Assembly (NCBI GenBank): GCA_026396275.1
Contig: JAPLXC010000007.1
Span: 37,084-101,083 of the forward strand
Direction of reading: 5' to 3'
Source: Candidatus Moraniibacteriota bacterium
GTDB lineage: Bacteria > Patescibacteriota > Minisyncoccia > Moranbacterales > JAPLXC01
DNA: 64,000 bases
Part shown: positions 6,365 through 45,617 of the stretch, one piece after another
Layout of the letters: the number at the start of each line of letters is the position of its first letter
Position numbering within the stretch: the stretch's first letter is position 1
Made by a program: the position numbers and the translations under genes
The notes under the pieces: generated by a model
The model's input: only the letters and a program-made list of their open reading frames with translations
Database searches by the model: none
Told to the model about the DNA's origin: nothing

Positions 6365-6437
6365 AATAACAAAACTTGAAGCTTGAAACGTAAAAATAAA
6401 TTTGTTTCATGTTTTATGTTACATGTTACATGAACTA

Positions 6438-18841: not shown

Positions 18842-19423
18842 TTACCCCAAAACAACTTTCAACAGTTCCGGAAATTCTTCTGTTCCCATATCACCCAATG
18901 TATAATGCCCCTTACTCTTAAGCTCAATTATTTTGCCATCTAAAACCTTATGGTAAATTTGAAGGCTTTTTTTGCCATCCTCTTCCTCGTCATCAGCGGT
19001 AAACATGATAATCTCTCCAATCCTATCTTTAATTTTCTCGTCTATTGGATAGACATAGAAAGCTTCCCTAAATTTATCGCCCGCGTCAGGAATTTTCCAG
19101 GGAGCTACCAGTATTAATTTTCTTATTTTCTGTCTTGTTTCACCCAGCCAGCGCACCAAAAAAGCACATCCGCAACTATGTCCAATTAAAATCGTATTTT
19201 CCGTAACTTCATATTTTTCAAATTCTTTTTTGAATTTTTCATAATCCGGCGCCCAGGGTTCAGGCAAAAGCGGAGTTTCTGTCTTTATTCCTTTGGCAAT
19301 TAATTTTTCCTTAATCCACGGAATCCAATGTTTGTCATATGTCCGCGTCTGCGGATCCATTGCTTTCTCTTTGTCCGAGGGACACCCATGAATTATTATG
19401 CAATTTATTTGTGACTGATCCAT
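18842..19423 (-). CDS. alpha/beta hydrolase, YdeN/RBBP9-like serine hydrolase family
   Basis: IIIHGCPS ... LIGHSCGC nucleophile elbow, about 190 aa typical of the family. Confidence 0.6.
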   Translation of the reverse strand: MDQSQINCIIIHGCPSDKEKAMDPQTRTYDKHWIPWIKEKLIAKGIKTETPLLPEPWAPDYEKFKKEFEKYEVTENTILIGHSCGCAFLVRWLGETRQKIRKLILVAPWKIPDAGDKFREAFYVYPIDEKIKDRIGEIIMFTADDEEEDGKKSLQIYHKVLDGKIIELKSKGHYTLGDMGTEEFPELLKVVLG

Positions 19424-19506
19424 ATAATAAAGTTGAGGTAAGCTTGTCCCGTGATCCGCCGCGGATTTTACGGGGTAATTAATTACGTAATTCTGAATAT
19501 TACACT

Positions 19507-19534
19507 ATCCTTAAATTCTCAAGTATTTAAGGAT
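19507..19534. promoter_or_regulatory. 28-bp inverted repeat atccttaaattctcaagtatttaaggat (copy 1, downstream of ArsR gene / upstream side of the hydrolase gene)
   Basis: 10-N8-10 palindrome, exact second copy at 19843..19870. Confidence 0.6.
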
Positions 19535-19538
19535 GGTG

Positions 19539-19844
19539 TTATTCTGTCTGGAATGTTTTTAAGAATCGGACGAACATTTTACCATAAGGCGACAGGGCGT
19601 GCTCCACAAAATTGCCGCGATATTTTTTGTTAATAAGCCCCGCCTGATAAAGTCTTCTGGTATGCTCGCTGATTGTTTTCTCATTGGCTTTCAGTTTTTT
19701 AACTATATTATCAAGTGTAATGTCTTTTTGTTCATCTATTAGTAGCAATATATCAATGCGGTGATGGTTGGCCATTCCTTTCAAGTGCCGCTCCATTTGT
19801 TTTGCCGTTTTGATTTTCCTCATATTAACATTATACACAACCAT
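19539..19844 (-). CDS. ArsR/SmtB family transcriptional regulator
   Basis: RIDILLLIDEQKDITLDNIVKKLKANEKTISEHTRRLYQAGLINKK winged-helix signature. Confidence 0.7.
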   Translation of the reverse strand: MVVYNVNMRKIKTAKQMERHLKGMANHHRIDILLLIDEQKDITLDNIVKKLKANEKTISEHTRRLYQAGLINKKYRGNFVEHALSPYGKMFVRFLKTFQTE

Positions 19845-19870
19845 CCTTAAATTCTCAAGTATTTAAGGAT
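19843..19870. promoter_or_regulatory. 28-bp inverted repeat (copy 2) overlapping ArsR start region: candidate autoregulatory operator
   Basis: Identical to 19507..19534. Confidence 0.6.
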
Positions 19871-26238: not shown

Positions 26239-27771
26239 ATGATCTCAAAAAGATTATCAAAAAAACAAAAGGAAGTTCTTGATTTTATTACCGCTTTTCA
26301 ACAAAAGCGCGAGTATTCCCCTTCCCTAGAAGAAATCGCTAAACATTTCAATATTGCAATTCCCACTGCTCACCAACATGTGCAGGTATTAAAAAGAAAA
26401 GGATTTATAAGCGCAAGAAAGGGGGAAAAACGATCTATCTCAGTAAAAGAAAAAGCTTCAATGGTACAAGTCCCGCTGCTTGGTGTTATTACTGCTGGCC
26501 AGCCGATTGAAGCGATAGAAAATAAAGAGACAATTGCTGTACCACAAAATAAACTCTCCCATTCCGGAGAATTTTATGCTTTACGAGTTTTGGGCAATAG
26601 CATGATTGATGAAAATATAAAAGACGGCGATATTGTTTTAGTAAAAAAACAAGAAGTTGCAGAAAATGGACAAAAAGTCGTTGCTTTAATTGATAACTAT
26701 GAAGCAACACTGAAAAAATTTTATAAGGAAAGAGGACACATTCGGTTGCAACCAGCTAATAAGAACATTGAACCAATAATTATAAAAAGGGATAGAGAAC
26801 TAACTATTCAGGGCATTGTAATAGATGTAATTAAAAATGAAGAGGAATTGCAAGCGGAAGAAATTTTAACTGCAGGAAAGGTTAAAAGACACTTAAAACT
26901 TCCTCTTAATAAAATTATTTTAGGAGACGCTGTTAGAGAATTAAGAAAATTACCGGATGAAAGTTGCGATATTATTATTATCGACCCGCCTTATAATATC
27001 GGAAAGGATTTCGGAAATAATATTGATAAAAGAGAATTAAGCGAATATATTGAATGGAGCAAAAAATGGATTAATGAATCTATAAGAGTAATGAAATCAA
27101 CTGGTACAATGTTTATTTACGGATTTAGTGAAATTTTAGCGTACTTGTCAGTTGAAATTCCTATAAATAAGCGATGGCTCATTTGGCACTATACTAACAA
27201 AAATGTTGCATCTTTAAATTTTTGGCAAAGAAGCCACGAAGCAATTATTTGCGCCTGGAAAGAAAAACCAATTTTCAACCGGGACGAAGTGAGAGAGCCA
27301 TATACTGAAGGATTTCTAAACGGCGCCGCTGGAAAAGTACGTAAAGGAACTATGGGAAGATTCAGCCGAGGTGGACAAGAAACTGTTTATAATGCACACG
27401 AAGGTGGCGCGTTACCAAGAGACGTTATAAAAATACCCGCTCTAGCAGGAGGAGCGGGAATGGTTGAAAGGTGGTTTTTATGCAAAACATGCAATGACGT
27501 TTTTGAGCCACGTGAATTAAAAAAACACCAAAATCATGAGATTATAAAACATCCGACACAAAAACCCTTGGAACTTTCAAAAAAACTTATAAAATCAGCC
27601 TCCTCAAGCAAAGAAGGCGTTATTTTGGTACCATTCGTCGGCAGCGGTTCAGAATGCGTCGCAGCCAAAGAACTTGGTAAAAATTATCTTGGTTTTGAAT
27701 TAAACCCAGATTATGTAAAGTTGGCCGAAGAGTGGTTAAAATCTACAAAGACTGCTCCTAAGTTATTTTAA
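26239..27771 (+). CDS. LexA-like repressor (wHTH + S24 peptidase) fused to N6/N4 DNA methyltransferase (beta class, DPPY then FxGxG)
   Basis: N-term: KQKEVLDFI...VPLLGVITAGQP (Ala-Gly site), GNSM catalytic Ser, VVALIDNYEATLKKF catalytic Lys; C-term: IIIDPPYNIGKDF (motif IV) and VPFVGSGSECVAAKELGKNYLGFEL (motif I). Confidence 0.85.
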   Translation: MISKRLSKKQKEVLDFITAFQQKREYSPSLEEIAKHFNIAIPTAHQHVQVLKRKGFISARKGEKRSISVKEKASMVQVPLLGVITAGQPIEAIENKETIAVPQNKLSHSGEFYALRVLGNSMIDENIKDGDIVLVKKQEVAENGQKVVALIDNYEATLKKFYKERGHIRLQPANKNIEPIIIKRDRELTIQGIVIDVIKNEEELQAEEILTAGKVKRHLKLPLNKIILGDAVRELRKLPDESCDIIIIDPPYNIGKDFGNNIDKRELSEYIEWSKKWINESIRVMKSTGTMFIYGFSEILAYLSVEIPINKRWLIWHYTNKNVASLNFWQRSHEAIICAWKEKPIFNRDEVREPYTEGFLNGAAGKVRKGTMGRFSRGGQETVYNAHEGGALPRDVIKIPALAGGAGMVERWFLCKTCNDVFEPRELKKHQNHEIIKHPTQKPLELSKKLIKSASSSKEGVILVPFVGSGSECVAAKELGKNYLGFELNPDYVKLAEEWLKSTKTAPKLF

Positions 27772-28470
27772 TTTTGAATCAATTTCTTCTTTCTTTTGTT
27801 CAAAAATGTAGGGCTCAAAAATAACAAAGCCATTCGAGAATACACGAAGCATTTTTGTGTCTAGATAGTTTTTCTTAAAAGTAAGATATGATTTTAAAAA
27901 TCCCGTCCCTCTTTTCTTTTTAGGATGCAAAATGGTTTTAAGATCAGGTACTTCATAGCGGATTGGAATTGTTATGCCCGGAATCGGCTCTTTCGGCTTA
28001 TGACTACGCCCCATTACACCACTATTTGATTTCTTCTTTACATCATAATTAATAACTAATTCCCTATATTGTACCTGAATGTCAGCCCCTTTATGATCAA
28101 GTTCCTCTGACATATTGACCGTATTTTTTCCAAATACTGACTCGGCAACATATCCTGCATGCATTTGAGTAATAAGCCCTGCCCATGTCCTATATATACG
28201 CGCCTCGATTCCTTTCTTAAAACAACTAGGACACATCCCAATTTTCTTTCGAAACTCGCTGAGTTTTTTTCTATTTTCCCTTCTATAAATATCATAGAAG
28301 GCGTTAAAATCAACAAAGTTCTTTTCATCCCAGTAAATTCGATATAACAGCTTAATAGCTTGAATATTCTTTGGCAGATTCATTTCCACTATTTTAATAG
28401 AACTATACTTTTCTCTGTAAGCACTTAGGTTAACTGTTTTCAAAAAATCACTAAATTTTTGTAGATACAT
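27763..28470 (-). CDS. putative restriction endonuclease partner (PD-(D/E)xK-like), convergent and overlapping with methyltransferase gene
   Basis: GADIQVQYRELVINYDVKKK fits D-x(n)-D-x-K; convergent 9-nt overlap with MTase 3' end as in many type II RM pairs; assignment is inferential. Confidence 0.4.
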   Translation of the reverse strand: MYLQKFSDFLKTVNLSAYREKYSSIKIVEMNLPKNIQAIKLLYRIYWDEKNFVDFNAFYDIYRRENRKKLSEFRKKIGMCPSCFKKGIEARIYRTWAGLITQMHAGYVAESVFGKNTVNMSEELDHKGADIQVQYRELVINYDVKKKSNSGVMGRSHKPKEPIPGITIPIRYEVPDLKTILHPKKKRGTGFLKSYLTFKKNYLDTKMLRVFSNGFVIFEPYIFEQKKEEIDSKLK

Positions 28471-28514: not shown

Positions 28515-29108
28515 TTACAAATTTTTGATTTCCTCTACGATTTCCGGGAAGTGTTCTTGGTTGAAATGCTGGCGGTCTTCAAAAATATGCGCTTTAACAC
28601 TTGGTAAATCTTTCTTATATCTTTCAACTTCATTAAAAGGCACAATTGGATCATCCTTGCTTTGATACAAATGAATTATTGGGCATTGCTTTTCAACTCC
28701 TTCGAGCGATTTTTTAAAAACAAAATCACTAATCTCATGGGTTTCTGAATGTGGCGGAGCTACCAAAAAAAGAGCTTTTATTTTTTTAGGAAATTCGTTT
28801 TCAGATAAATATTTAACCAGAAAGATGCCTCCTTGCGAATGTCCGATTAAAATCGGTTCACTTTCCATAAATGGAAACATTCTTTTAAACCATATTTTCC
28901 ATTCCTCATACCTGGCATTATTTGAATTGGGCATACGGGGCGCAAGCACTTGGAATTCTCCTCCCAATTCCGATTGCAGGTGAATTTTCCAATCTTTTTT
29001 GGGCAGAAATGATTCAATCGTTACTTCCTGATTTTTAAGATCATCCAAAAATTTTTTGTACGAATCAAACGAACTTCCGCCATGTATAATAATAACTTGT
29101 TGTTTCAT
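28515..29108 (-). CDS. alpha/beta hydrolase, YdeN/RBBP9-like (second, divergent paralog)
   Basis: VIIIHGGSS ... LIGHSQGG. Confidence 0.6.
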   Translation of the reverse strand: MKQQVIIIHGGSSFDSYKKFLDDLKNQEVTIESFLPKKDWKIHLQSELGGEFQVLAPRMPNSNNARYEEWKIWFKRMFPFMESEPILIGHSQGGIFLVKYLSENEFPKKIKALFLVAPPHSETHEISDFVFKKSLEGVEKQCPIIHLYQSKDDPIVPFNEVERYKKDLPSVKAHIFEDRQHFNQEHFPEIVEEIKNL

Positions 29109-29273
29109 ACTGTAAATTTTTTACTTTCTCTAATCCCATCCTTCGCCATAAAGCTTCCACCGACGCCAAGGCTTTGGCGGACAAGTCGGAAGGACATGCC
29201 TAATTATTTACTTCTATAATCTCTAATCACCCCGTAAAATCCGCGGCGGATAACGGGGCAAGCCAACCCTCCC

Positions 29274-29293
29274 CCCAGTTAAATAATACTTCC
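29274..29293 (+). repeat. 20-nt direct repeat cccagttaaataatacttcc (copy 1)
   Basis: Exact second copy at 29905..29924; the pair brackets gene 29327..29806. Confidence 0.7.
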
Positions 29294-29904: not shown

Positions 29905-29924
29905 CCCAGTTAAATAATACTTCC
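29905..29924 (+). repeat. 20-nt direct repeat cccagttaaataatacttcc (copy 2)
   Basis: See 29274..29293. Confidence 0.7.
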
Positions 29925-31344: not shown

Positions 31345-31722
31345 TCAAAAATCATCCTCGCTTTTTTCATGAAAATATTTAAACCTCAATTCGCTGTAGC
31401 GCGGGTCGCTGACTATCTTATTAATTTTTTTTGATGTGTGTTTAATCTGAACATACAAGTCGCGCAATTCTTTTTCCATAGCCGCGATGAGATTTTTGCC
31501 GGTTTTCAGTTCAACGTAATTAAGCTTTTTTCTCATTTCAAAATCGGCCTGCTCCTTTTTTACCCTTTCAAGAATCCGCTTCTTTTCCGTATACTCTTTT
31601 TTGAGCGCAAGATACGCGCCGATCTCCATTTTTACGGCCTCTAGCTCCTCACGAAATTCCTCGTCGCCTTTTTCGCTTTTTTCACCAGCCGGAAACTGGA
31701 AATTTTCTAATTTTTGAGCCAT
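31345..31722 (-). CDS. hypothetical helical protein (downstream of AbrB/MazE-like gene)
   Basis: 125 aa, charged coiled-coil-like. Confidence 0.4.
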   Translation of the reverse strand: MAQKLENFQFPAGEKSEKGDEEFREELEAVKMEIGAYLALKKEYTEKKRILERVKKEQADFEMRKKLNYVELKTGKNLIAAMEKELRDLYVQIKHTSKKINKIVSDPRYSELRFKYFHEKSEDDF

Positions 31723-31749
31723 AAATTTACTTCTTCCAATCTTTAATCA

Positions 31750-31785
31750 CAATCCTGCCTCTAAACGCGCAATAATCGCGCAAGA
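31750..31785. promoter_or_regulatory. three direct CGCGCAA repeats at 11-nt spacing (iteron-like)
   Basis: aacgcgcaataatcgcgcaagaaatcgcgcaatag. Confidence 0.4.
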
Positions 31786-31799
31786 AATCGCGCAATAGT

Positions 31800-31976
31800 T
31801 TATCTATTTTTATTCCTATAATCCCTAATAACAATTCCTCCCTTAATCCTTTTCACCCTCACTCGCTGTTTTTCCTTCCAGCCGAGCGCATCGGTCATCT
31901 CTTTAGGTAAAGTCGTGGCCAAGCTCGTTTTGCCCAGCCGCACCAATTTTCTCGTGTTTTTGTCCTTTAATTTCAT
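31800..31976 (-). CDS. AbrB/MazE/SpoVT-family DNA-binding protein (antitoxin-like), 58 aa, unannotated
   Basis: MKLKDKNTRKLVRLGKTSLATTLPKEMTDALGWKEKQRVRVKRIKGGIVIRDYRNKNR: swapped-hairpin signature (VRLGKT.L..P......LG...G..V.V); palindrome atatacttaagtatat in its leader. Confidence 0.55.
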   Translation of the reverse strand: MKLKDKNTRKLVRLGKTSLATTLPKEMTDALGWKEKQRVRVKRIKGGIVIRDYRNKNR

Positions 31977-31982
31977 AGGCGA

Positions 31983-31998
31983 ATATACTTAAGTATAT
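31983..31998. promoter_or_regulatory. perfect 16-bp palindrome atatacttaagtatat between promoter and AbrB-like start: candidate operator
   Basis: Seen directly. Confidence 0.5.
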
Positions 31999-32016
31999 AC
32001 TTGGGTATATACCTCC

Positions 32017-32052
32017 ATCCTACGCCAAAAAGGCCTGGAAATCAAATAAAAA
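32017..32052 (-). promoter_or_regulatory. 36-nt exact repeat containing sigma70-like promoter on minus strand (TTGATT-17-TAGGAT), copy 1
   Basis: atcctacgccaaaaaggcctggaaatcaaataaaaa; identical copy at 32536..32571. Confidence 0.5.
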
Positions 32053-32137
32053 ACGGCGGGAGTTTGCGCCGTGAAAATCGGTTTGCCCGCGCCTCTTTTT
32101 TTCAAACAAAAACCCTGCCTCAATAATTGGGCAGGGC

Positions 32138-32365
32138 TTAGATGTTCATCCAGTGTTTCAGCAGGTACATATTTTCTTTAATTGAAATAGCAAGATAAAA
32201 CAGTAGAAAAGCTATGAGTATGGCAGTGTAATAAATCTCTTTGCGCTTTCGTGCCGCGGCATCAATCCGGCAACCCGTCTCAATGGCAAAAATACCCAGG
32301 CCGCAAATGACGACTTTGCCAAAGATGACGCCTCCCAATCCCCACAGTTCGTAATAAATTCCCAA
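32138..32365 (-). CDS. possible small membrane protein (TTG start; weak)
   Basis: 75 aa with two hydrophobic segments; no ATG start; downstream of second promoter copy. Confidence 0.2.
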   Translation of the reverse strand: MGIYYELWGLGGVIFGKVVICGLGIFAIETGCRIDAAARKRKEIYYTAILIAFLLFYLAISIKENMYLLKHWMNI

Positions 32366-32392
32366 GACAGGGCCCTTTTCTGCCGCTCCTCC

Positions 32393-32473
32393 TCATCCTG
32401 ACTGAATGACTAAAACAGTATAAACCAGATCAACAAAACAAAGCAGCAAGAAACACATCGCCAATCTACTCAC
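32393..32473 (-). CDS. possible 26-aa hydrophobic peptide (GTG start, strong SD aaaggaggtgg)
   Basis: MSRLAMCFLLLCFVDLVYTVLVIQSG; SD 5 nt upstream of GTG. Confidence 0.25.
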   Translation of the reverse strand: MSRLAMCFLLLCFVDLVYTVLVIQSG

Positions 32474-32535
32474 CTAAACCACCTCCTTTAAAGAACTGTC
32501 CTTTTATTCATCTTAGCTTCTTTTCAGACACTTAT

Positions 32536-32571
32536 ATCCTACGCCAAAAAGGCCTGGAAATCAAATAAAAA
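32536..32571 (-). promoter_or_regulatory. 36-nt exact repeat / promoter copy 2
   Basis: Identical to 32017..32052. Confidence 0.5.
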
Positions 32572-32634
32572 GCAGATGCTAATTATTTTTATTGTGATAA
32601 AAAAATACCCTAAACACCATGCTGGCATTTAGGG

Positions 32635-33219
32635 TTAAAAGAGGGTTAATATTTTTCTAAAAAAGGACTTTTTTTCTTTGGCAGTTCTCTGCCCTTCTTT
32701 TTTAACATCAACAATCTGCCCATATCCGATTTCTTTGAAATAAGCGATAGCCGTGGACTGGCCTAATATGCCATGAACCATCCTTTCCCTTGCTACACAG
32801 TATTTTGATTTAACTGTGCCAATGAAATTATTGGCACTTATTTTCCGGGAAAATTCTAAGGAAAATTCATTGTTGAACACAGTAAGCAAGGCTTCGATAT
32901 ATGCCAATAAGTAGGAACTACTATCGAAAGAAATCCCGTTTTTCGCAATTAAGTTTCTCTGCTCCAAGGATAACCCCATCTCTTCTAGATATGATATTAT
33001 CTCTTCTTTGTCCTGATCTGATATTTTGCAATCCCCGCTCATGATTGGAAAATCGAAACGCACAGACACATTGCATTCAAAAACAATGAGTCTGATCTCC
33101 TGTTTACCTATCCGCTTTGATAATTTCACTAAGTTGAACTGCATGGCATTCCTCCTTTCATAAAAAATTTCAAATAACTGCTGAAAACAGAATATATCAC
33201 AGTTTTTATTTTTTGTCAA
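32635..33219 (-). CDS. hypothetical protein
   Basis: 194 aa (likely starts at internal MQFNLVKL); hairpin terminator ccctaaa...tttaggg downstream. Confidence 0.4.
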   Translation of the reverse strand: MTKNKNCDIFCFQQLFEIFYERRNAMQFNLVKLSKRIGKQEIRLIVFECNVSVRFDFPIMSGDCKISDQDKEEIISYLEEMGLSLEQRNLIAKNGISFDSSSYLLAYIEALLTVFNNEFSLEFSRKISANNFIGTVKSKYCVARERMVHGILGQSTAIAYFKEIGYGQIVDVKKEGQRTAKEKKSFFRKILTLF

Positions 33220-33386: not shown

Positions 33387-36300
33387 TTAGGGTGATTTTT
33401 TTCGAAATCCGGTTCCGGCGGGAATGAGCCGTCCGATGATGACGTTTTCTTTCAACCCCCGCAACCGGTCTTCCTTGCCGATAACCGCGGCGTTGATGAG
33501 AACGCGCGCCGTTTCTTGAAAAGACGCCGCCGAAAGAAATGATTCAGTGGAAAGTGCCACTTTGGTAATGCCCATAATTATCTGTTCGCCTTTGGCTGCT
33601 GCGCCTCCGGTTTTCTTTATTTCCCTGTTGGCCTCTTCAAACTGATCTTTTTCCACAATGTCTCCCGGCAGCAGTTCAGTGTCTCCCGGGTCAAGAATTT
33701 TAATCCGACTCAACATCTGGCGGATGATAACCTCAATGTGCTTGTCGTTAATTCCTTCACCCTGGGAAGCATAAATTTCCTGAATTTCCCGGGTGATATA
33801 GCGCTGCACCTCTTCTCTTCCCAGCAGGTGGTAAAGTTTCTTAAGATCAATATTTCCCGCGTTGATCAAGGCGCCTTTGGCAATTGCCTGCCCTTTCTTC
33901 ACTAAAAGAGTTAACTCCGCCGGCACCGCATATTCCCGAATATCTTTTTTCTTGCCCTCGGTCTCGATTATAACAGTTATGGTTTTGTGATTTTTATTGT
34001 TAATATCCGCCACCTTTCCGTCCACTTCGGAAATAAGGCCTTCTCCCTTGGGCGGGCGGGCTTCAAATATTTCCTCCACCCGGGGAAGACCCTGGGTGAT
34101 GTCGGTTCCGGCCACTCCCCCGATATGGAAGGTTCTCATAGTGAGCTGGGTTCCCGGTTCTCCAATAGCCTGGGCGGCCACAATTCCGACGGCCTGGCCC
34201 AAGTGGACTACTTCATTTCTTCCCAGATCAATGCCGTAACATTTCTGGCATACTCCGCGCTTCGTCTTGCAGGTTATCACGCTGCGAATTTTCACCTTTT
34301 CAATATTAAGGCCTTCGATTTTTTTGGCATCTTCGCGGCTAATCAGGATATCTTTCCCGACAATTACTTTTTTGCCTTTGGGATCAGTGATGTCCTCAAT
34401 GGTCACTCTTCCCTCAACGCGGGCGGCAAAACTTTGCCCGATTTTATCGGAATCGGCTTTGTAAAGATAAGATCCTTCTTTGTCTTTGCAATCCTCTTCC
34501 CGGACAATCACGTCTTGAGCCACATCCACCAGGCGGCGGGTGAGATATCCGGCGGTGGAAGTACGGAGAGCCGTGTCGGCCATTCCCTTCCGGGCGCCGT
34601 GGGTGGAAATAAAATATTCAAGCACGTTGAATCCTTCTTTGAAAGAACTCTTCACGGGAAGTTCAATGGTCTCCCCGGTGGGACCGGCCACCAATCCTTT
34701 CATTCCCGTCATCTGCACTACCACCGATTCGCTTCCCCGGGCCTTGGAATGGATCATGAAATGAACCGCCCCTTCTTTATCCAGAGAATTACGAACCGCT
34801 TCCGCGATTTTATTCTTGGCTTCGTTCCAGACCTCGATCACCCGGTTCTTTCTTTCTTCTTCAGTCAGCAGTCCCATATTGTACTGCTGATTAATCGTTG
34901 CCACACTTTGCTCGGCCTGAGCCAGCACTGCTTTTTTCTCTTCCGGAACTTTCAAATCATCCATTCCCCAGCTGATGCCGGAACAGGTAACTGCCTGGAA
35001 GCCCAGATTTTTAATCCGGTCAATGTAATAAGCCGTTTTTTCCTGCCCAATTTCCTGGAGTAATCTAGCCACCAATCCCTTAAGTTCTTTCTTGGTCATT
35101 TCCTCATTAATGAAGCGCAACTGTTCGGGAAGGGCGTCGTTCAGGAGAACTCTGCCCACCGTTGTTTCAATAATCTTTTCGTTGAGCAACAGTTTTACTT
35201 GAGCATTAACTCTTACTATTCCCAGCTGATAAGCGTGAATGGCTTCTTCTTCCGAAGAGAATGCTTTTCCTTCTCCCTTTACGCCTTTTTTAATATGAGT
35301 GAGGTAATAAATTCCCAGTACCACATCCTGGGAAGGAACGGTGATGGGCTCACCGGTAGCGGGCTTAAGCAAGTTTTTAGTTGAAAGCATTATCTGGGAA
35401 CTTTCTTCCCGGGCCTGATCGGTAAGAGGAACGTGAACGGCCATTTGGTCGCCGTCAAAGTCAGCATTAAAGGCGGCGCACACCATCGGATGAATCTGAA
35501 TGGCTTTCCCTTCAATGAGCACCGGCTGGAAGGCCTGGATGGAAAGGCGGTGCAGAGTCGGCGCCCGGTTGAGGAGCACGTAGTGGCGTTCGATAATCTC
35601 ATCCAGAATTTCATAGGCCTCTTCGGCTTCAGCGTCCACCATTCTCCCGGCGGTGCGGACGTTGTGAGCGTATTCTTTTTCAATGAGTTGGTTAATGATA
35701 AATGGTTTGAATAGTTCAAGGGCCATTTTTTTCGGCAGCCCGGCTTGATGCAGTTTGAGCTGCGGTCCTACTATAATCACGCTCCGACCGGAGTAATCAA
35801 CTCTTTTTCCCAGTAGGTTCTGGCGAAAGCGTCCCTGTTTGCCTTTGAGAGAATCCGCCAGTGACCGGAGTGGCCGGCGCTGTCCGGTGGAGGCAGCCAC
35901 AGCCATCTGGCGCCGGCGGGCGCTATTGTCAAAAAGAGCGTCTACTGCTTCCTGCAGCATCCGTTTTTCATTGCGGGTAATTACTTCCGGAGCTCCCAAG
36001 TCAATGAGTTTTTTGAGACGATTGTTACGGTTGATAATCCGCCGGTAGAGATCGTTAAGGTCGGAAGTGGCAAAGCGGCCGCCATCAAGTGCAACCATTG
36101 GGCGAAGGTCGGGAGGAATGACTGGAATAACAATTGGCAGCATCCATTCAAGACGCAGTTTGGCTTTTTTAAACCCTTGAAAAAGTTTCAAGCGTTTGAG
36201 AAATTTTTTCCGATCGGTTATCTCTTCAGATTCCAACTCTTTCTTGAGGCGCTGGATCTGATCATCAACATTCATTTTCTCCAGAACCCGGCGGACAGCT

Positions 36301-36977
36301 TCAGCTCCAATGCCGGCGGAAAACACCTGGCCAAAACGGCTGGAAAGATTGAAATACTCCAGCTCCGAAAGAATCTGAAGGGAATGAAGACCCCTGAGCT
36401 CCTCCCGGGCGGAGCGGTAAATTTCTTTTAGCTCCTCCAAAAGTTTTTCGGGTGATCCGTCTTGAGTTAATTTTCCGCTCTTAATCTCTTTTTGCTTGGC
36501 TTTGTACTCATTGTCCAGCTGTTCCAGAGCCCGGGTGCGAGCCCCCTCGTCTAATTCCATAATTAGGTAGGCAGAAAAGTAGACAACTTTTTCAATATCC
36601 TGAAGCGATATTCCCAGAGCCAGTCCTATCTTGGAAGGAACCCCCCGCAAAAACCAGATATGCGAAACCGGAACAGCCAGCTTGATATGGCCCATCCGCT
36701 CTCGGCGCACAATCGAACGGGTTACTTCCACGCCGCACTTATCGCAGACAATGCCTTTATAGCGGATGCGTTTGTATTTGCCGCAATAACATTCCCAGTC
36801 CTTCGAAGGACCGAAAATCTTTTCGCAAAACAGTCCGTCCTTTTCATACCGCTGGGTGCGGTAATTGATGGTCTCTGGCTTGGTTACTTCTCCGTGAGAC
36901 CAGGTCAATATTTTGTCGGGACTGGCCAGTTTCAGCTGAACGCTGTTAAAATCGCTTACTCTGATAATGTTTTCCAT
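33387..36977 (-). CDS. rpoC: DNA-directed RNA polymerase subunit beta'
   Basis: [14 protein letters not shown] catalytic motif, zinc-binding Cys cluster at N-terminus, 1196 aa. Confidence 0.97.
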
Positions 36978-45228: not shown

Positions 45229-45319
45229 GCCATAAAACACGTAACATGAAACATGTAACACAGTAAAGTCGTTAAACGGAAAAATCAAATGTTATATGTT
45301 TTATGTTTCATGAATAATT
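45229..45319 (+). repeat. ~90-nt palindromic intergenic element (catgaaacatgtaaca ... tgtta(t/c)atgtt...tttcatg), copy A, abutting rpmI start
   Basis: Near-identical copy at 45518..45617; shorter relatives upstream of rpsF, ssb, rpsR, efp. Confidence 0.7.
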
Positions 45320-45517: not shown

Positions 45518-45617
45518 AAATCATGAAACACTTAACATGAAACATGTAACAAAGTAAAGTCGTTAAACGGAAAAACCAAATGTTACATGTTATGTGTTTT
45601 ATGCTCCATGAATAATT
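45518..45617 (+). repeat. ~90-nt palindromic intergenic element, copy B, abutting rplT start
   Basis: Shares loop agtaaagtcgttaaacggaaaaa(t/c)caaa with copy A. Confidence 0.7.

Follow-up and report, generated by a model that had tools for sequence, protein, structure and literature searches.

Reuse of promoters before unrelated genes, without a recognised vehicle, has been described under the name of putative mobile promoters (Matus-Garcia, Nijveen, and van Passel, 2012; summarised in PMC3575422), which are delimited by an operational cut-off of 50 nt or more with an identity of 80% or above. The window analyzed here, that is, the whole 64-kb stretch from contig JAPLXC010000007.1 of a Candidatus Moraniibacteriota bacterium, contains an exact pair of 36-nt sequences (ATCCTACGCCAAAAAGGCCTGGAAATCAAATAAAAA; Table 1) that are spaced 519 bp apart and lie upstream of two different genes on the minus strand; copy 1 precedes a gene of the AbrB/MazE/SpoVT family and copy 2 a gene of the DUF5658 family that is interrupted by a stop codon. 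The sequence of the 36-mer is most readily interpreted as that of a complete sigma-70-type core promoter, made up of a T-rich tract, a -35 hexamer, a spacer ending in TTTTGGCG, and a -10 hexamer. The pair probably reflects promoter reuse, in which an exact promoter module, native and operator-controlled at copy 1, has been placed before the adjoining, broken DUF5658 unit. Promoter reuse is an already known kind of event, of which the 36-mer pair is a fresh example.

The 36-mer is the longest exact direct repeat of the 64 kb, in which shuffled sequence reaches a maximum of 17 nt. The window, which covers 64 kb of the 121.7-kb contig, contains no further site with up to three mismatches (shuffles, 0.00), and the best of its remaining ungapped matches reaches 23/36. 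Identity between the copies breaks off sharply at either end, and the 200-nt flanks of the two copies align at chance level (11 vs. 11.0 ± 1.7 and 12 vs. 11.4 ± 2.0 in shuffles). With flanks as unrelated as these, a longer or degenerate tandem or segmental duplication, of which the 36-mer would be the part still recognisable, was rejected. Cores of 22-24 nt taken from the 36-mer found no match in genome, metagenome or viral contig collections, and neither the exact AbrB-family protein nor the exact 75-residue protein annotated after copy 2 has an entry in the gene-position index.

Read on the minus strand, the 36-mer has the form TTTTTAT-TTGATT-17 nt-TAGGAT. The hexamers agree with sigma-70-type promoters in being 17 ± 1 nt apart and in carrying A at the second and T at the sixth position of the -10, and the 17-nt spacer ends in TTTTGGCG in both copies (32023-32030 and 32542-32549, minus strand). 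The final base of the -10 is also the final base of copy 2. Both copies are co-oriented with the gene that follows, the distance from the end of the -10 to the start codon being 40 nt for the ATG of abrB and 62 nt for the GTG of the DUF5658 frame, and transcription is predicted to start near 32010 from copy 1 and near 32529 from copy 2. These features agree with the preliminary description of the stretch, which had reported an exactly duplicated 36-nt element, had read it on the minus strand as a TTGATT-17 nt-TAGGAT promoter, and had proposed a search for further copies.

Support for a promoter comes, for copy 1, from comparison with the regions upstream of AbrB homologues (loci are given below by L numbers). 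The 58-residue AbrB-family protein has 101 homologues with 57-84% identity, the named ones being nearly all from Moranbacteria or other Patescibacteria, and the family, whose members have 55-59 residues, occupies 209 loci in species-representative genomes, often several per genome. Upstream of these genes there is a common plan, in which a terminator hairpin with a T-tail is followed by TTGnnn, a 17-nt spacer typically ending in TTTTGGCG, TA(A/G)(A/G)AT, and, beginning a few bases beyond the -10, two to four operator boxes that lie ahead of the start codon. With a strict pattern (TTGNNN-17-TANNAT within 160 nt upstream) this promoter is detected in 15 of 35 AbrB-homologue loci, compared to 0.98 in shuffles (maximum five). 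In an alignment of eight sequences, which include L003, L091, L017, and L032, the columns TTTG (the start of the -35) and TTT-GGCGTA--AT are invariant. The TTTTGGCG spacer end is seen directly before the -10 in L003, L006, L016, L032, L080, L089, and L091, and a fusion of terminator and promoter like that at copy 1 also precedes AbrB homologues in L028, L032, L078, L080, and L089. L089, the protein of which is 84% identical, matches copy 1 continuously from the GGC-TTTTGGCGTAGGATGAAGGTATATACCCGAGTATATAC spacer through the operator (GGCTTTTGGCGTAGGATGAAGGTATATACCCGAGTATATAC). On this comparative evidence the AbrB-family gene has copy 1 as its native promoter, at what appears to be a homologous position in relatives, and copy 1 together with its operator is taken to be the ancestral unit.

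A longer version of the promoter pattern was likewise followed across loci; every site is co-oriented with an open reading frame (ORF) starting 12-170 nt downstream, and the pattern also precedes genes other than abrB in L006 (a nitroreductase gene), L041, and L080, so that, judged by sequence, it looks like the general promoter form of the lineage. The TTTTGGCG spacer end before TAAAAT or TAGGAT, which also occurs ahead of non-AbrB genes, may be a lineage-specific extended promoter element. Two loci are particularly close to the 36-mer. In L080, from another Moranbacteria species, 33/36 positions match and the element heads a 204-residue gene immediately upstream of the AbrB homologue; the 3/36 mismatches all fall in the first half of the spacer. 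L034 matches up to an insertion just before the -10, with 5/30 mismatches, of which the spacer has three and the T-tract and the -35 one each. At every position where L080 or L034 differs, the two window copies agree with each other, which argues for one being copied from the other and against independent conservation. The sequence context further suggests that copy 1 is most likely the original and copy 2 derived, because a terminator hairpin fused to the T-tract, which is usual in AbrB loci, occurs only at copy 1.

The AbrB/MazE-like gene and the 16-bp perfect palindrome that the preliminary description had located after copy 1 are both present, and the palindrome (ATATACTTAAGTATAT, 31983-31998) belongs to a three-box operator, in which it is formed by the overlap of the two gene-proximal boxes. 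The boxes conform to GTATAT(A/T)C, GTATATAC being itself palindromic, and the first lies 4 nt past the -10 of copy 1. No dimer of GTATATAC was found elsewhere in the 64-kb window, even with three mismatches (0.07 expected). Box type was compared with protein subtype in 35 tabulated AbrB loci (11 RKL-type and 24 RKIT-type), to which the window gene is extra. Proteins with the N-terminal motif RKL(V/L/M)(R/K)(L/I)GKT are associated with GTATATAC-like boxes in 10/11 tabulated loci, or 11/12 with the window gene, the exception being L001, in which a hairpin insert displaces the boxes; proteins with RKIT(R/K)(V/I)GKT are associated with ATACNTAY-like boxes (ATAC(T/G)TA(C/T)) in 22/24. Box type co-varies with protein subtype and autoregulation is therefore indicated; on the strength of this pattern the AbrB-family regulator most likely binds the three boxes and represses its own transcription. 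After copy 2 an operator is absent, a single 6/8 half-site overlapping the junction being all that was detected, and control of copy 2 by the AbrB-family protein was rejected on this ground. The leader after copy 2 is unstructured (fold z = +0.8).

A third paralogue type (MANKKSTEANIRKL...) carries GTAAGTAATTAATTCATGAATTAATT boxes, and the ATACTTAC-type operator belongs to a paralogue. Between the stop codon of the window's AbrB-family gene and the start of the 125-residue ORF downstream are three direct repeats of TTGCGCGAT(T) (31723-31799, minus strand), and the related sequence AAGTCGCGCAAT lies inside that ORF (31457-31479).

After copy 2 the preliminary description had placed two small genes, encoding a 26-residue hydrophobic peptide equipped with a Shine-Dalgarno sequence and a 75-residue protein. 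The Shine-Dalgarno sequence and both ORFs exist mechanically (32473-32393 and 32365-32138), but they form one frame, probably of the DUF5658 family, rather than two genes. The frame is split by an in-frame TGA at 32395-32393, and the two ORFs are separated by this TGA and nine sense codons of the same frame. An exhaustive profile search with the 75-residue part detected two relatives besides itself, both of 103 residues, and the match starts at their residue 37. The read-through product of 111 residues aligns with homologue P0103 over residues 1-101, across the stop, with 40% identity (BLASTP E = 9e-22). Of the residues invariant in the family, M1, C12, D15, and L16 lie inside the 26-residue part and E32 between the TGA and the TTG 'start' of the 75-residue ORF, and C12, D15, L16, E32, E65, and R69 are kept in the read-through product. 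The match to PF18902 (DUF5658) spans residues 9-96 with 19.5 bits, against a cut-off of 25.2, whereas homologue P0104 scores 39.8 bits. The codon-usage score of the frame is 0.285, the best of the six frames, the real genes of the window scoring 0.14-0.43. The 26-residue 'peptide' is thus the first transmembrane helix of a larger protein, and the 75-residue 'hypothetical protein' annotated as NT136_02350 is corrected to a fragment of a DUF5658-family gene.

TGA ends nine of the 46 long ORFs and is hence a stop codon in the source genome; with rpoB and rpoC also intact under table 11, recoding of UGA (code 25 or 4) was rejected. Because TGA is a normal stop here, the DUF5658-family gene is probably broken, or polymorphic in the population. 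The TGA sits in a two-codon, GGA-rich insertion (GGA TGA GGA GGA) relative to all five homologues, and a single GGA-to-TGA change would explain the stop; this is the simpler account, although origin of the gene in an organism that reads UGA as glycine is conceivable. A 38-residue ORF overlapping the stop (ATGA) was also considered and rejected, having a poor codon score and an arginine-rich product.

The arrangement suggests how the pair might work and how it might have arisen. Two insulated transcription units, separated by two intrinsic terminators, would share the same core promoter, and both promoters would be expected to fire at equal basal strength. The abrB promoter would be feedback-repressed via boxes that overlap its predicted transcription start, and the DUF5658 promoter, without boxes, would be constitutive and outside operator control. 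In this scheme the neighbour's promoter would have been duplicated or captured, passing from copy 1 to copy 2, and the five leading T's of copy 2 would have been carried along from copy 1.

From the sequences compared, it appears to be common for a short control element to recur exactly ahead of neighbouring units. Exact pairs of 28, 23, 20, and 19 nt precede consecutive genes elsewhere in the window. A diverged third member of the promoter family, located before a Ser_hydrolase gene (Table 1), can be aligned with promoter plus leader of L080 (z = 10.9, 0/300 shuffles) and with copy 1 (z = 6.5). Among the homologue loci, L046 has a 34-nt operator pair, located before a 177-residue gene and before the AbrB homologue, L078 has a promoter pair of 24 nt and, in addition, a similar third copy, and L001 has an operator pair.

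Several points weigh against promoter reuse as set out above. The hexamers match the E. coli consensus at only 8/12 positions, and a promoter consensus scan that lists sites at 9/12 or better leaves the 36-mer unlisted; initiation at either copy is itself predicted from the sequence. The gene behind copy 2 has a premature stop, so that the function of copy 2 may have been lost. No close relative with the state before duplication was found in public collections. Finally, the boundaries of the repeat, at the end of the terminator stem and the end of the -10, could be recombination joints.

This last point leads to an alternative that we consider unlikely, in which the 36-mers are recombination joints and the 519-bp unit between them (36-mer, leader, DUF5658 gene, and terminator) entered or can leave the locus. 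Entry would be by Campbell-type homologous integration of a circle or by site-specific recombination, the repeat would be a by-product of insertion, and the cassette would be losable again through repeat-mediated deletion. The repeats do bracket exactly one self-contained gene unit, identity does stop abruptly, and the neighbouring DUF2127 unit is likewise enclosed by an exact pair, of 20 nt and 631 bp apart. AbrB promoter and leader regions are also prone to insertion, as illustrated by hairpin inserts in L001, L016, L034, and L078, by the 204-residue gene between promoter and operator in L080, and by a paralogue swapped at the -10 region in L091. However, bracketing is automatic when an element heads two consecutive genes, as it does at 19507/19843 and 45242/45533, and no integrase, transposase or other recombinase is among the best 25 of the 60 families in the window. 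An att- or attC-like palindrome is likewise lacking, the best hairpin of the 36-mer having just -3.8 kcal/mol, and an att or attC reading of the element was rejected; nor was a cassette-free allele or a further copy found in public collections.

It is more doubtful still that there was no duplication and that two old promoters of a stereotyped consensus (TTTTTATTTGAT...TTTTGGCGTAGGAT) have been held identical by selection. The consensus is long and conserved across species, with 33/36 positions matched in L080 and 26-27/36 before unrelated genes in L006, L034, and L080. Against this, the two window copies do not differ even where species do, which is mostly in the first half of the spacer, other promoters of the window match at 23/36 or fewer, and the diverged copy before the hydrolase gene shows what an older member of the promoter family looks like.

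The preliminary description had favored co-regulation by the identical promoters of an antitoxin-like regulator and two small membrane peptides, a layout resembling a toxin-antitoxin or bacteriocin module, which now appears very improbable. The regulator does belong to the AbrB/MazE fold family, the 26-residue ORF is hydrophobic with a strong ribosome-binding site, and the TGA, if it ends translation, would yield a 26-residue membrane peptide. An independent small hydrophobic peptide of the type I toxin kind was nevertheless rejected, the 26 residues being residues 1-26 of the single DUF5658 frame, where they are covered by homologues, and what the two units share is a basal promoter, with the operator after copy 1 only. 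Known toxins (MazF, PIN or Doc) were not found directly downstream of the AbrB-family gene in any of 32 homologue loci, nor did the window locus, including the 125-residue ORF, have toxin matches in Pfam, PADLOC or NCBIfam. No transporter, immunity or modification genes occur near the 36-mer pair, the neighbours being the orphan ORF, abrB, the 125-residue ORF, and Fic, and a leader-type peptide is not present at the locus. The DUF5658 homologues in L006 and L008, in turn, have no adjoining AbrB gene and no genes shared with the window.

An assembly artefact, with two strain variants stitched through the shared 36-mer, is scarcely credible. The sequence does come from a metagenome assembly, and public collections contain no other copy of the locus for comparison, but two variants wrongly joined through a common k-mer would retain it once and not twice at a distance of 519 bp, typical reads are longer than 36 nt, and both junctions are biologically sensible as terminator-promoter-gene units.

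Table 1. Features of the 36-mer locus and its surroundings (window coordinates except in the last row; promoter, operator, and terminator assignments are predictions).
Feature	Position	Strand	Remarks
rpoC	33387-36977	-	first in minus-strand order
Orphan ORF	32635-33144/33219	-	own strong promoter and terminator
Terminator of upstream orphan ORF	32597-32635	-	25 nt before copy 2
36-mer, copy 2	32536-32571	-	same module before DUF5658-family gene; -35 32564-32559, -10 32541-32536
Ribosome-binding site GGAGGTG	32480-32486	-	6 nt before GTG; read from sequence
DUF5658-family frame	32138-32473	-	111 codons, ~3 transmembrane helices; GTG start 32473
Intrinsic terminator 1	32103-32139	-	GCCCUGCC...GGCAGGGU stem then U-run after DUF5658 frame; from fold
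Intrinsic terminator 2	32053-32072	-	ACGGCG-8-CGCCGT; T-tail runs into T-tract of copy 1
36-mer, copy 1	32017-32052	-	promoter of AbrB-family gene; exact match, architecture conserved before homologues
Parts of copy 1	T-tract 32052-32046; -35 TTGATT 32045-32040; -10 TAGGAT 32022-32017	-	
Operator	31981-32012		three 8-bp palindromic boxes, GTATATAC / GTATATAC / GTATATTC, 12-bp period
AbrB/MazE/SpoVT-family gene	31800-31976	-	58 residues; PF04014, 33.3 bits vs. cut-off 24.7
125-residue charged ORF	31345-31722	-	downstream of AbrB-family gene; probably coiled-coil; no family, no toxin domain
Diverged third promoter-family member (CTTTATGGCGAAGGATGG)	29136-29153	-	before Ser_hydrolase gene 28515-29108
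TaqI-like restriction enzyme	27763-28470	-	3.3 kb downstream of AbrB-family gene
LexA-methyltransferase fusion	26239-27771	+	LexA DNA-binding, S24 peptidase, and N6/N4 DNA methyltransferase domains; convergent with TaqI-like enzyme
~38-nt hairpin inserts	L001 3897-3932; L034 1426-1465; L078 2931-2966		also in L016, L024, L039, L071

The 36-mer pair lies in a defence island downstream of rpoC that includes Fic, the TaqI-like enzyme, and the LexA-methyltransferase fusion. In minus-strand order, rpoC is followed by the orphan ORF, copy 2, the leader with its ribosome-binding site, the DUF5658 frame, and terminators 1 and 2, and then by copy 1, the operator, the AbrB-family gene, the 125-residue ORF, Fic (the PADLOC SoFic protein, E = 3e-118), DUF2127, Ser_hydrolase, and the TaqI-like enzyme. 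A similar layout is found in L001, from related Moranbacteria, in which rpoC is followed by many small ORFs, an AbrB homologue, an MvaI/BcnI gene, and a convergent LexA-methyltransferase gene. The same fusion is convergent to pairs of AbrB and restriction enzyme genes in L001, L013, and L065. BLAST comparison of the 881-bp region with phage and plasmid collections found nothing, and no Rfam family was detected in the region of the pair.

The gene directly downstream of the AbrB-family gene was tabulated for the same 32 loci and belongs to restriction-modification in up to ~14 of them, an upper bound obtained by summing per-family counts, in which several Pfam families can match one protein. 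The families concerned are N6_Mtase, DpnI, D12 and N6_N4 methyltransferases, Eco57I, EcoRI methylase, Type ISP, C5 methylase, and MvaI/BcnI; the remaining loci have up to four alpha/beta hydrolases, one MazG-like gene, and otherwise varied genes. Homologues of Fic, the hydrolase, and the LexA-methyltransferase recur near AbrB homologues. This context suggests that the AbrB-family protein controls transcription locally, acting on variable genes that are often related to defence. A literature search found no paper tying AbrB-family proteins to the control of restriction-modification and none on DUF5658. A broader proposal, which is speculative and unlikely, is that in the defence islands of Patescibacteria the AbrB-family gene would constitute, together with its promoter/operator module of 24-36 nt, a portable control cassette, an AbrB-fold counterpart of the C proteins of restriction-modification systems, whose cis elements would be actively copied before adjacent genes and whose promoter-operator junction would be preferred for cassette insertion and exchange, the 36-mer pair being a fresh product.

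Promoters and leaders of AbrB homologues show a number of other rearrangements. Hairpin inserts of ~38 nt (TTACCCCGT...ACGGGGTAA type) lie within the promoter or leader in several loci (Table 1) and may be miniature mobile elements; that in L034 separates TTTTTGGCG from TAGGAT. In L091 (1913-2075, minus strand), behind the GTATATAC operator and first codons of one AbrB gene there is a second -10 (TTGGCGTAAGAT) with another operator and another paralogue, and in L080 (3957-4491) a 78-residue GIY-YIG gene lies between a GTATATAC-type operator and a truncated paralogue; the sequences of both loci are suggestive of modular exchange at the promoter. L078 (1796-2255, plus strand) contains a 460-nt GC-rich, ORF-free segment between promoter and terminator (fold z = -7.1 vs. 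shuffles) that is a candidate structured RNA from its predicted fold; it gave no Rfam match at E <= 0.01 and is absent from the window.

Other repeated control sequences were observed in the window. The minus-strand sequence GGAAGTATTATTTAACTGGG is an exact repeat of 20 nt at 29274-29293 and 29905-29924, 631 bp apart, that brackets the DUF2127 gene; each copy leads into a G-rich or hairpin segment and a degenerate -10 of the form GGCG(T/A)A(C/G)GAT, before the DUF2127 and Ser_hydrolase genes. An exact 28-nt palindrome (ATCCTTAAATACTTGAGAATTTAAGGAT) occupies the -35 position of two successive promoters (19507-19534 and 19843-19870), which precede a 101-residue regulator of ArsR/MarR type and the next gene (Ser_hydrolase, 18842-19423), and L058 has a 34-nt pair similar to it. 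Both Ser_hydrolase paralogues have a leader hairpin, CCCCGTAAAATCCGCGGCGGAT(C/A)ACGGG, at ~19448-19478 (minus strand) and 29230-29264, the second being inverted. Upstream of rpmI and rplT is a leader of ~75 nt (45242-45284 and 45533-45575, with 19 + 23 nt exact) that forms a hairpin (AACATGAAACATGTAACA ... TGTTACATGTT); the pair may be a duplicated L20-type translational operator, and had no Rfam match at the gathering threshold. The motif ATGTT(G/T)TATG(C/T)TACATG is located at 6409, 6928, 7458, and 7752 (plus strand), where it coincides with or shortly precedes the start codons of rpsF, ssb, and efp; a related sequence is also found in the rpmI and rplT leaders.

To our knowledge, promoters of the Candidate Phyla Radiation have hardly been described, and the loci compared here provide a testable Moranbacteria promoter consensus, consisting of TTTTTATTTGAT, a spacer ending in TTTTGGCG, and TA(A/G)(A/G)AT. 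The matched pair of promoters with and without an operator would constitute a natural experiment for autoregulation by the AbrB-family protein. The wider and more valuable lead is the occurrence of AbrB-family regulators at the place of C proteins in restriction-modification systems, with operators that co-vary with protein subtype.

Several known systems resemble parts of the locus. Like an integron cassette, the 519-bp unit is a single promoter-proximal gene bracketed by a short repeat amid variable genes; unlike in integrons, there is no attC-type palindrome, an integrase is missing from the best 25 of the 60 families, and the repeat is a promoter. Small membrane proteins of DUF5658 (PF18902) with 100-103 residues can be aligned with the whole of the read-through product, although the window frame is interrupted by TGA and its own profile score lies below the cut-off. 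With the AbrB/MazE/SpoVT antitoxins and transition-state regulators (PF04014) the window gene shares profile membership, the small size of its product, and palindromic operators at its own promoter, whereas, in contrast to MazE antitoxins, its family lacks MazF/PemK or another toxin partner, is multi-copy in Patescibacteria, and has a variable downstream gene. The C proteins of type II restriction-modification systems are similar, as far as the sequence indicates, in being small DNA-binding proteins encoded just upstream of defence genes with palindromic boxes at their own promoter, and the next gene in relatives is often a restriction enzyme or methyltransferase gene (L001, MvaI/BcnI; L088). 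C proteins differ in being of the Xre-type helix-turn-helix class and not of the AbrB/SpoVT family, and in the window the next gene is the 125-residue ORF and the TaqI-like enzyme is further away (Table 1).

The closest counterparts of the 36-mer pair are the putative mobile promoters. In both cases, near-identical non-coding sequence precedes unrelated genes of one genome, adjacent coding sequence lacks homology, and a highly similar copy exists in another species (the 33/36 match in L080 for the 36-mer); the genes downstream of the pair are non-paralogous, one belonging to the AbrB family and the other to the DUF5658 family. The 36-mer differs in being 100% identical but only 36 nt long, which is below the criterion of at least 50 nt given there, and, whereas the putative mobile promoters are dispersed, the 36-mer heads adjacent genes and the copy spans exactly the T-tract to the -10; the phenomenon is nevertheless taken to be the same. 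By itself, the pair is a clean and unusually precise example of what is probably promoter reuse, the copied segment beginning with the T-tract, stopping at the final base of the -10, and including nothing else.

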